Positions 292 to 6,317 of a stretch of DNA of 6,514 nt are shown here, one piece after another. The notes beneath the pieces were generated by a model that saw only the letters and a list, made by a program, of their open reading frames with translations, did no database searches and was not told the origin of the DNA. The translations under genes and the position numbers were made by a program. Location of the stretch: IMG/VR virus record IMGVR_UViG_2737471834_000003. One strand, given 5' to 3'. Positions within the stretch are counted from its first letter, which is position 1. Each line of letters begins with the position of its first letter. This stretch comes from a virus. Taxonomy: Duplodnaviria; Heunggongvirae; Uroviricota; Caudoviricetes.

Positions 292-2012
292 TATTTCACC
301 CTCAGAAAAAGCATTTTCTCTTCAGCTTCTGCATTTCCGCAGGCCATCCATATTCCTGACTGTACCGGGTCAAGCCGCTCTCCGGCCAGTTCATCTCCGT
401 AACTTACCGCATCCTGAGAAGCACAGAACAGGTAACTCCCCACACCACCGGCTACCGGACGACCGGCAAACTGCCACCATGAAGTGGTACCCAGCCCACT
501 GTAAGCCCTGGTGAATGCCTGCCCCATACAGTTAAGGAAAATCTGACCTGAAACATTCTCATTCGTCGGAACCTGCCACATCAGACCATATGCATAATTC
601 CCCGCGGCACCCGGAACGGGGTGGTCTTCACAGGCAAGGTAGTGGTTATATTTCAGCAACGGGAACTGAAGGGCAGAATACATAAAACCATGAGCCAGAA
701 TGCCCGTGAATTTTTTCGCAGTCTTTATCCCGTCTTCCGGGTAAACTCCGCTGGGTCCCATGGGTCCCTGAGGCCCCTGTGGGCCGGTAGCTCCCCGGGC
801 ACCGGTATCACCTTTATCGCCTTTCTCACCTTTTTCTCCCTGAGGCCCGGTATCGCCCCGGTCCCCTTTCTCTCCCTTTTCACCACGGGGGCCCTGTGGG
901 CCGGTCTCCCCCTGCGGTCCGGGCTCTCCCTGTGGTCCTGGCGTTTTTGCAATCTCCCTGGCTTCCTCCAGTGCCTTCAGTGCCCCCTGCTCATGTTCAC
1001 CTGCTGTCGTGGCACTGTCTTCCGCCTGGCTGACCAGTTGCTGCACCTGCCCGGCCTGTAGCTCCACAGACTGGCTTACAGCCACAACACTGTCTGCCAC
1101 ATGCTGAACATTCAGAGCCACGGACTCCGTCTGCGCTTTTATCTGTGCACTCTCTTCTGCACGACTGGCGGCCTCTGTGGCAAAACCCTCTGCCTCATTA
1201 CGTGCCGTTACCGTCTTCTGTAAATCACTGCTTACCTGCCGTGCACTCTGTGCAGCTTCGCTGGCATGCGTCCCCGACTCCACGGCACTGGCTGAAGACT
1301 CACTGGCTGCCTGTTGTGCCTGCTCCAGCAGCCGCTCAGTATCCTGTTTATCCTGCTGAACCTGTCCGGCATTTTCTGCCATTTCTGCAGCCAGTATATT
1401 CACCTGCTGACGCTGTTCTGCCACAACCTCTGCATTTTTCTGCACCGCATCAGCAAGGGTCTGCGTATTATCTCTTGCCTGTGCAGCCTCCACAGCATAT
1501 TGTCCGGCCTCCTGCGCACTTCCGGCTGCAGACTCTGCATTTTTCTGAGACTGCACCTCATAATTCTGCGATTTCCTTTCACTTTCCCGGGCAGCGGACG
1601 CCGATTCTGCCGCTGCCGCGGCGTCTGCGCCTGTTGCCTCCTTATCACGGGTAACCTGCTCAGACAGCGTAATAACGGTATTCACCATTATCTCAAAGCG
1701 TTTCATCACCTCAGGGCGCAAATCGCCATCTTTGGGAGCATCCAGAAATGCATTCAGCGTATCCGGCTTATCCGTCGGTGTGACATAAATCTCACCGGCT
1801 TTTACCGGAGCCCACCCTTCACGGAGAAGAAAAACATCATAAAATCCTGGCTCGGCTTCGATTAAATACCGCCCGTTACTGTCCGTAATACATTCCGCCA
1901 CAATGTGCACAATCACCGTCGGACTCGTTTTTCTGGACCGCAATTCAATTGAACACGCCTGCACCGGTTTACCCGCACCGTCTTTCAGTACACCAGATAT
2001 CTGTACGGCCAT
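291..2012 (-). CDS. stf: Side tail fiber protein (lambda Stf-like N-terminal domain, Ala/Gln-rich rod, collagen-like Gly-X-Y repeats, unrecognised C-terminal domain), 573 aa
   Basis: Track ORF 291..2030 (-). Residues 7-125 of the track protein ([18 protein letters not shown]...[12 protein letters not shown]) resemble the N-terminus of lambda Stf as I recall it ([18 protein letters not shown]...RPEALRRFELMV). I place the start at ATG 2012..2010 rather than the track's TTG at 2030 because GGAG lies 6 nt upstream of the ATG and the lambda homologue begins MAV. It follows J directly, as stf does in lambdoid phages. Confidence 0.85.
747..938 (-). repeat. Collagen-like repeat: 21 uninterrupted Gly-X-Y triplets within stf, including an imperfect ~45-bp tandem duplication
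   Basis: Track residues 365-428 read [64 protein letters not shown], with glycine at every third position. On the plus strand, units beginning ggtatc at ~804 and ~849 (period 45) align at roughly 60% identity. Confidence 0.85.
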
Positions 2013-2060
2013 ATACACTCCATAAGTCAATGTCAGCCCCGGAAGAGAGGATTCAGGAAT

Positions 2061-2090
2061 AACAATAAAAAAGGCGCCATTTCTGGCGCC
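2061..2090 (-). terminator. Rho-independent terminator-like hairpin downstream of J (minus strand)
   Basis: Minus-strand sequence GGCGCCA-GAAA-TGGCGCC (7-bp perfect GC-rich stem, GNRA-type loop; plus 2073..2090) followed directly by TTTTTTATTGTT, and sited 20 nt after the J stop. Confidence 0.7.
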
Positions 2091-2109
2091 AGTATATGGA
2101 TTATAAAAT

Positions 2110-5645: not shown

Positions 5646-6317
5646 TCAGCGACCAATCACCACTACCTGACCGCCGCCCCCCTCATCAGCCGTGCTGATT
5701 TCCTGTGAAATCACCCGCGATCCCACGAGCATTTCACCGTACAGAACCGGCAGAACATTGCCCTGGGCAACCATGTTATCCAGTGAGGAAAAATAGGTAT
5801 TCTGCTTACCGTTATCCGTTGTCTGCATGCGGGGCGTTTTCGGTTTCGGGGCCAGCATCTGCGCCACACCCCCCAGAATCATACTGGCACCGAGAGAAAA
5901 CAGGATACCGGTCATACCACCGGCCCCAATGGCTGCCCCCCATGCTGCAAGGGTGGCTCCGGCAGTAAAGAATGATCCGGCAATGGCGGCAGCCCCCAGA
6001 ACAATCTGGAATACGCCCCCTGACTTAGCCCCGGCGACTCTGGGAACAATATGAATCACAGCGCCGTCAGGCAGAGTCTCATGTAACTGCGCCGTTAACC
6101 CGGACGTGCTGACGTCCCGCCCGGCAATCCGTACCTGATACCAGCCGTTGCTCAGTTTCTGACGAAACGCAGGGAGCTGTGTGGCCAGCGCCCGGATGGC
6201 TTCTGCCCCCGTTTTCACACGCAGGTCGATGCGGCGGCCAAATCGTTGCAAATCCCCGTAAAGGCAGATGCGTGCCATGCCCGGTGACGCCAGACGGAGT
6301 GTGTGCGTCGCTGCCAT
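5646..6317 (-). CDS. I: Tail assembly protein I, 223 aa
   Basis: Track ORF 5646..6317 (-). The protein (MAATHTLRLASPGMARICLYGDLQRFGRRIDLRVKTGAEAIRALATQLPAFRQK...) has the same length as, and is almost identical to, lambda gpI as I recall it. Its ATG at 6317..6315 lies inside the 3' end of K, as in lambda. Confidence 0.95.
   Translation of the reverse strand: MAATHTLRLASPGMARICLYGDLQRFGRRIDLRVKTGAEAIRALATQLPAFRQKLSNGWYQVRIAGRDVSTSGLTAQLHETLPDGAVIHIVPRVAGAKSGGVFQIVLGAAAIAGSFFTAGATLAAWGAAIGAGGMTGILFSLGASMILGGVAQMLAPKPKTPRMQTTDNGKQNTYFSSLDNMVAQGNVLPVLYGEMLVGSRVISQEISTADEGGGGQVVVIGR

Follow-up and report, generated by a model that had tools for sequence, protein, structure and literature searches.

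The window, i.e., the whole 6,514-nt stretch of tailed-phage DNA analyzed here (Caudoviricetes; IMG/VR record IMGVR_UViG_2737471834_000003), covers the last part of a tail module resembling that of lambda, in which all genes are located on the minus strand (Table 1). A gap of 97 nt separates the stop codon of the central tail-tip gene J from the start of a side tail fiber gene (stf). The stf open reading frame spans positions 291-2030 when the TTG at 2030 given in the ORF list is taken as its start. The ATG at 2012 (MAVQISG...) is the start in annotated RefSeq homologues and leads to a protein of 573 aa, the N-terminus of which matches PF08400 (“Prophage tail fibre N-terminal”, E=3e-40 in Pfam), while residues 7-98 match a “Tail fiber protein” in the PDB (9e7m, E=4e-20). 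With both the PF08400 anchor and a position after J, Stf is a side tail fiber of the lambda Stf type. Because gpJ has its own C-terminal receptor-binding domain, Stf can be considered as an accessory (side) fiber. Anchor, site downstream of J and accessory role beside a J-based central fiber are thus shared with lambda Stf/Tfa, whereas the distal half is unrelated, the partner gene encodes a DUF4376 and not a Caudo_TAP protein, and neither lom nor orf401 lies between J and stf. In Ur-lambda, Stf is stated to speed adsorption and to widen receptor use (PMC3368898).

Table 1. Genes of the window and parts of the side tail fiber (Stf), with positions in the window.
Feature	Position	Strand	Remarks
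gpI homologue	5646-6317	-	PF06805
gpJ, central tail-tip protein, complete, 1,160 aa	2110-5592	-	six J-specific Pfam domains including PF12421 (Ig_GpJ_C, E=4e-37)
Stf N-terminal virion-attachment domain (PfN, PF08400)	1617-2012	-	start codon ATG at 2012-2010; supported by PF08400, PDB 9e7m and the RefSeq start
Ala/Gln/Glu-rich stalk, Stf residues 133-358	939-1616	-	A47, Q31, E28, S23 of 217 residues
Collagen-like triple-helix stalk, Stf residues 359-422	747-938	-	22nd triplet, GVY (422-424), extends into the tip
C-terminal tip domain, candidate receptor-recognition domain, Stf residues 423-573	294-746	-	all-beta model, uncatalogued family
Variable tip region, residues 12-90 of the tip (Stf 435-513)	474-710	-	all 23 allelic amino acid differences; proposed specificity loops
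Tip region invariant among alleles, residues 91-150 of the tip (Stf 514-573)	294-473	-	0 nonsynonymous vs. 4 synonymous changes
DUF4376-type tail-fiber chaperone gene, first 97 codons	1-291	-	ATG at 291-289; continues beyond the window; complete product 203 aa

The shaft of Stf comprises an Ala/Gln/Glu-rich stalk, presumed to be a trimeric coiled coil (the “PCoil” of Ghosh et al.), and a run of 22 Gly-X-Y triplets without breaks (residues 359-424), recognized as collagen in Pfam (PF01391, E=1e-15). The same PfN-PCoil-Col shaft is found in the EPclA-D proteins, encoded in lambdoid prophages of E. coli strains that are pathogens or come from animals. Of these, EPclA was shown to form trimers bearing a globular head at the C-terminus (Ghosh et al., 2012, PMC3368898). 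The fiber ends in a tip that a preliminary description had read as a globular C-terminal domain with scattered Trp, Tyr and Cys. Its translation and coordinates were exactly as described, with 151 aa ending in MLFLRVK and followed by the TAA at 293-291, and the composition was confirmed, with 4 Trp, 9 Tyr, 4 Cys and 8 Phe among 150 residues.

The same description had matched this domain to no known fiber tip. Indeed, scans of the isolated tip returned no match in Pfam and PHROGs (E≤1) or in NCBIfam, none was obtained among PDB sequences at E≤10 with a single sequence or a 20-member profile, and three divergent members of the family, used as tblastn queries, found nothing in 50,697 phage records. 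A back-translated scan of species-representative genomes gave 76 pattern matches, 0 of which were confirmed. In view of these empty results in Pfam, PHROGs, NCBIfam, PDB sequences and phage records, the term “unknown family” is correct for curated resources. The candidate receptor-binding domain proposed at this place is supported as such, receptor binding being probable. Receptor-binding tips are extremely diverse and modular, so that a new tip family is expected instead of surprising.

Relatives were found in larger protein collections. When 5.8 billion proteins were searched with a word index, one cluster only was returned, 97% identical and from E. coli O8:H19, and exhaustive phmmer over 1.84 billion representatives retrieved 25 proteins at E≤1e-3, including 19 at E<1e-10 with 37-45% identity, in every one of which the match reached the C-terminal residue. 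Over the whole exhaustive HMMER search, homologues were 30-45% identical and fell into about 19 clusters at 50% identity, and the profile search returned mostly E. coli proteins named “collagen-like protein” or “hypothetical”. Because homologues persist at this level of identity and dN/dS is below 1 throughout, the tip is, judging from these comparisons, genuinely coding and under constraint rather than an ORF arising by chance. The family is rare and was present in 18 of 5,426 complete E. coli genomes: 8 carry the subfamily of the window, mostly from cattle or buffalo, and another 10 carry a commoner subfamily. IMG/VR contained one contig with the tip family (L012), with the layout J-stf-DUF4376 as in the window.

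Upstream of the tip, three types of anchor were observed, namely PF08400 (lambda Stf), PF03906 (T7 fiber; P0004) and PF12571 (P2 gpH; P0013, which also carries the Phage_fiber_2 repeat PF03406). The tip is thus one of a small family that has been shuffled among anchors of siphovirus, podovirus and myovirus type, which, together with its linkage to a chaperone and its allelic variation in the first 90 residues (see below), adds to what had been described. Some members of the family have collagen repeats and others do not. This bears on the role of the tip, which could be a trimerization and registration nucleus for collagen folding alone, receptor contact taking place elsewhere or not at all. 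Such a role as nucleus was shown for the PfC domain of EPclA fibers (PMC3368898). Yet the tip is also present on the collagen-free fibers P0013, P0018 and P0023, it is swapped between anchors in the manner of receptor-binding tips, and against the about 64 aa of PfC it has 150 aa, the first half of which is rich in loops, varies among alleles and would be superfluous for a pure nucleus. A nucleus without any other function is unlikely, the two roles being compatible.

Several known classes of C-terminal domain were considered for the tip. PfC itself (PF06820, Phage_fiber_C) was rejected, as neither the full protein nor the isolated domain gave a match at E≤1. The “PfC2” of EPclD was also rejected, as Stx2-86 gp21 ends in Peptidase_S74. 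A jelly-roll head of the C1q/TNF type (BclA, PDB 1wck) was discarded after sequence and fold comparison with the PDB. By its sequence, the tip belongs to no described tip family, be it PfC, S74, the Tfa-served tips or the C1q-like heads, and, with its DUF4376 partner, it adds to the EPclA-D scheme a C-terminal class not described before. The ending of Stx2-86 gp21, another collagen-bearing Stf-like fiber (EPclD class), suggests another function, since the tip, too, closes the protein behind a fibrous shaft and has about 150 aa: it could be an autoproteolytic intramolecular chaperone of the Peptidase_S74 type, cleaved off after folding. A search for such a motif, advised in the preliminary description, gave no match to Peptidase_S74 (PF13884) in the tip, whereas a scan of this kind did recover the domain in the control Stx2-86 gp21 (E=4e-8). 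Alignment of the tip-family profile with the C-terminus of gp21 by hhalign reached a probability of 0.3%. Moreover, the S74 fold is helix-rich with an autocleavage serine while the model of the tip is all-beta, and self-cleavage is extremely unlikely. What was found instead is a separate DUF4376 gene overlapping the stf stop, at the place where Stx2-86 gp21 is followed by a gene for a Gp38-like adhesin.

The stop codon of stf and the start codon of this partner gene overlap in the sequence TAATG. The part encoded in the window is 100% identical over 97 aa to the protein encoded at 7510-8121 of locus L001, annotated as DUF4376. The full-length chaperone matches phrog_1141 (E=6e-72) and PF14301 (DUF4376, E=1e-19), the latter being its sole Pfam match; Caudo_TAP (PF02413) is absent. 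A DUF4376 gene was located immediately 3' of the tip and on the same strand in all nine of nine distinct loci (ten with the window), whatever the anchor, and usually with a stop/start overlap between the two genes. These loci (L001, L002, L003, L004 (=L005), L006, L007 (=L008), L009 (=L010), L011 and L012, duplicates being counted once) are two E. coli chromosomes, six contigs obtained by exact-protein look-up for P0004, P0012, P0013, P0019, P0023 and P0025, and the IMG/VR contig. Therefore, the tip and its chaperone constitute a cassette. An apparent alternative pairing in H9/H10, where chaperone DNA lies beside a “glycoside hydrolase” gene, was rejected as a decayed prophage where, at about codon 41, a deletion has fused the chaperone to a truncated lysozyme gene.

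Across the nine loci, the divergence of the tip followed that of chaperone residues 1-97 (Pearson 0.80-0.83) but not that of the DUF4376 part (0.08-0.32). For the whole chaperone, Mantel p values were 0.006-0.018. Spearman coefficients of this analysis, which covered nine non-independent loci, were weaker (0.38-0.69). Since these loci are few and related, the co-variation of tip and chaperone is suggestive at most.

The arrangement is in line with that of Alteromonas phages V22 (gp26/gp27) and A5 (gp8/gp9) and of the receptor-binding proteins (RBPs) of Campylobacter Fletchervirus and CJIE1, where a DUF4376 gene of about 180-240 aa comes directly after the fiber, and in those systems as here the DUF4376 cassette is common to morphologically different phages. 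The fibers themselves differ, as the hosts of Stf are enterobacteria, its anchor is of the lambda Stf type and its shaft is collagen. In Alteromonas phages V22 and A5, DUF4376 proteins were characterized experimentally as fiber chaperones or transient caps, the need of the chaperone for a binding-competent fiber being established by experiment only for V22 gp26/gp27 (PMC10579305). In Campylobacter phages, they are presumed RBP chaperones (PMC10877375).

For the allelic variation, the alignment comprised four alleles of the subfamily found in the window, with 3-4 alleles per comparison. All 23 variable tip positions were in residues 1-90 and 0 in residues 91-150 (Fisher p=3e-6), and 16 of the 23 were outside predicted strands. 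Between alleles, residues 12-90 had a dN of 0.14-0.15 and an omega of 0.5-0.7. This is illustrated by the comparison of the window with strain R1, in which tip residues 12-90 gave a dN of 0.136, a dS of 0.197 and an omega of 0.69, while residues 91-150 showed 0 nonsynonymous and 4 synonymous changes and the chaperone an omega of 0.2. Within a patch of 15 codons (tip residues 16-30), 7 nonsynonymous changes stood against 1 synonymous change (omega about 2.4), but overall omega is below 1 in the variable part and 8 changes in the patch are too few for a claim of positive selection. The invariant part contains the residues Q91, G94, G102, G121, G130 and W132, which are conserved in the whole family, and is proposed to form a trimer core and/or a surface on which the chaperone docks.

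Outside the tip, Stf was near-identical among alleles, with indels in the collagen consisting of whole triplets. The dS value rose tenfold along the protein, from 0.02 over residues 1-355 to about 0.2 from the collagen region on. Hence, the distal part has had a history of its own, as would follow from recombinational exchange. In the chaperone, alleles were 98% identical with a dN of 0.014, whereas the first half of the tip differed at 17-19 positions. From this difference in dN between tip and chaperone, variation of the specificity type resides in the fiber and not in its partner.

These values also bear on the possibility that the DUF4376 protein stays on the fiber end as the adhesin, like gp38 of T2-type phages or as proposed for TfaMu, with the tip serving mainly as its docking platform. 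Such a role would agree with the label “tail fiber protein” of PHROG 1141, with the co-variation of the N-terminal domain of the chaperone with the tip, and with the cases of TfaMu, which stays bound and may contact LPS, and of the Alteromonas chaperones, which cap the fiber tip (PMC10579305). Against it, the chaperone is nearly constant between alleles while the first half of the tip varies, the Alteromonas chaperone, weakly bound, does not remain on the fiber, and the fiber of A5 attaches to cells in its absence (PMC10579305). A chaperone acting as adhesin is accordingly quite improbable. Like that of the pure nucleus, this explanation is less well supported than that of a recognition tip.

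According to AlphaFold2, run as a monomer with an alignment of 19 sequences as input, the tip is an all-beta domain, modeled confidently (mean pLDDT 85.7, pTM 0.70) except for residues 1-20, which alone were weak. The preliminary description had proposed a Foldseek comparison of such a model. The best PDB matches were the R1/R2 pyocin fibers and were weak (E 0.02-0.09, TM about 0.4), while matches in BFVD were mostly tail fiber proteins (best E=1e-6), including proteins of Campylobacter phages CP21 and CP20 with 27-28% identity over about 55 columns at E about 1e-3. Other neighbors were Pa193 gp47, phage K gp144, NF5 RBP, T4 gp34 and Mu S. The similarity in fold is modest (TM about 0.4), the alignments covering about 90-110 of the 150 residues at 10-14% identity. 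As to receptor-binding proteins of known specificity, the comparison led to a class, mostly saccharide-binding fiber tips, and not to a specific receptor.

Among these neighbors, the fiber of R-type pyocins has a chaperone of the Tfa type and is not known to have one of the DUF4376 type. Its structure (R1 PALES_06171 / R2 PA0620; PDB 6cl5, 6cl6 and 6cu2) consists of knobs and a lectin-like “foot”, about 90 of the 150 tip residues superposing on it without detectable sequence similarity, and the shaft of Stf differs in being coiled coil and collagen. In the pyocin, the C-terminal lectin-like “foot” determines specificity for the LPS core (PMC11871291). The “tower” of Staphylococcus phage phi11 Gp45 and the C-terminal domains of phage K gp144 (PDB 5efv and 5m9f) are about 10% identical to the tip and come from phages of Gram-positive hosts. 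Some of the fold matches, i.e., the phi11 “tower” and T4 gp34, are without a proven receptor role; the proposed GlcNAc site of phi11 is in the propeller platform and not in the tower (PMC4901313).

Tailspikes also aligned with the tip, over 84-98 of about 580 residues. The tip could be a small glycan-degrading module, depolymerase or esterase, instead of a passive binder. The aligned portion is too short for a beta-helix catalytic body, no hydrolase, lyase or esterase family of Pfam or NCBIfam matched the tip, and 150 aa is small compared with known depolymerases. Enzymatic activity is very unlikely and, as for the intramolecular chaperone, can be regarded as essentially excluded. By analogy, the tip may work like the tips of R-type pyocins, of Mu/P2 and of fibers served by DUF4376 proteins.

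Altogether, the tip is probably a trimeric receptor-recognition module, folded by a separate chaperone and exchanged with it as a cassette. Beyond the architecture, family membership, fold class, chaperone linkage and variability pattern observed above, we infer that the tip forms a trimer, depends on its chaperone and binds a receptor. In the proposed mechanism, the PfN domain would fix the fiber to the tail tip beside gpJ, and the coiled coil and collagen triple helix of the shaft would carry the all-beta module at the far end. The DUF4376 product, coupled translationally through TAATG, would be required or helpful for folding and trimerization of the tip. Once folded, the tip would set the register of the collagen helix and probably nucleate it, as PfC in EPclA. 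It would then be the first part to touch the bacterial surface, and reversibly so, with a specificity set by loops within about the first 90 residues, whereas about the last 60 residues would provide a conserved core and a surface matching the chaperone. Tip and chaperone would travel between phages as one cassette.

As for the receptor, the fold neighbors allow a guess, a surface saccharide such as LPS. A bolder version of the cassette, doubtful at present, is that tip and DUF4376 gene form a self-contained host-range unit, of a family unrecognized until now, jumping between siphovirus-, podovirus- and myovirus-type prophages. The absence of this unit from every cultured phage genome would then be due to a receptor missing from laboratory hosts. 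The example given for such a receptor, a type of LPS or capsule present in E. coli from livestock, is equally tentative. A longer shot is a ligand of the animal host, following the speculation on collagen-like prophage proteins in PMC3368898.

Beyond its value as a module, the tip is an ordinary instance of the known diversity of receptor-binding proteins. Fiber tips decide the targets of phages, engineered pyocins and tailocins, and a new tip family is a usable module. The boundaries of this module are clear, with the end of the collagen for the tip and the TAATG-coupled gene for the chaperone, the cassette of tip and chaperone is common to three tail morphotypes, and the variable region 12-90 together with the invariant region 91-150 suits the design of specificity swaps. 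The tip also extends the catalogue of C-terminal classes of collagen-like prophage fibers in pathogenic and livestock E. coli.

Synonymous divergence was followed along stf and its chaperone gene between the window and the Escherichia coli strain R1 allele (L002). In this comparison, which covered window segments 747-2012 and 294-746, the dS value was 0.02 over stf residues 1-355 and rose to about 0.2 in the collagen region and the C-terminal tip domain; tip residues 91-150 and the chaperone again gave lower values, of 0.06-0.10. Such a rise and fall suggests, from the sequence comparison, recombination breakpoints near stf residue 355 and inside the tip. Within the collagen region, alleles differ by whole Gly-X-Y triplets, so that the triple-helix register is preserved; relative to the window, the R1 allele has one GDK triplet deleted and one GPT triplet inserted. 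Upstream, only 97 nt separate stf from the central tail-tip gene J, and this interval contains no lom or orf401-like gene, unlike in lambda, where such a gene lies between J and stf.

The same tip family was also found in P2/HP1-like myovirus-type prophages, at three loci (L006, L007 and L011), each with a tandem pair of fibre genes. The first fibre is of the P2 gpH type, with its own chaperone or none annotated (in L007, this chaperone combines Caudo_TAP_N and DUF4376), and the second joins a lambda Stf-type N-terminus to a tip of the window family, followed by a DUF4376 chaperone. For the commoner tip subfamily, that of the IMG/VR contig L012, up to nine matching places per carrier E. coli genome were counted (median 4); these places may be full extra copies, partial remnants or short shared segments.

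At some loci, the DUF4376 chaperone gene is followed by a DUF1353 gene (117-126 aa), which overlaps the chaperone stop codon; no DUF1353 gene is present after the tip-chaperone cassette in three other tip-family loci (L004, L007 and L011). The PHROG 1158 label for the DUF1353 protein is "tail assembly chaperone." However, a study of TtaP, a DUF1353 protein of Salmonella Typhi, demonstrated that it is a phospholipase A2 and also pointed out its likeness to prophage DUF1353 proteins (PMC11525133).

Coordinates of the features discussed
Feature	Location	Remark
Collagen region of stf	window 747-938	
J-stf interval	window 2013-2109	
DUF1353 gene	L001 8114-8491; L002 8123-8503; L009 2204-2557	outside the window, just past position 1
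Tandem fibre genes	L006 2068-5991; L007 1448-6246; L011 2254-5826	
Decayed prophage end	L013 3681-4491	E. coli TK3046
P0025 to DUF1353 genes	L009 750-2557	
YadA C-terminal domain protein gene	L002 8907-10070; L013 5268-6557	trimeric autotransporter adhesin
EPclD-class collagen fibre region	L014 17173-19815	phage Stx2-86

In L013, the end of the same prophage survives in decayed form: a deletion joins a truncated lysozyme pseudogene to a DUF4376 gene missing about 40 N-terminal codons; the fibre and the entire tail module are lost and the DUF1353 gene is intact. Another locus, L009, looks like a prophage remnant retaining the distal cassette only: a 177-aa gene (P0025), encoding little beyond a divergent tip domain, has a YdaS-type gene as its neighbour, and DUF4376 and DUF1353 genes come after it. 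Just past the fibre/chaperone/DUF1353 genes, the prophage end in L002 and L013 carries a YadA C-terminal domain gene, which is possibly prophage cargo.

In phage Stx2-86, the same fibre scaffold as in the window is associated with a different solution: the EPclD-class collagen fibre ends C-terminally in a Peptidase_S74 intramolecular chaperone, and the next gene encodes a Gp38 N-terminal adhesin domain (PF21721), with a cor gene after that.
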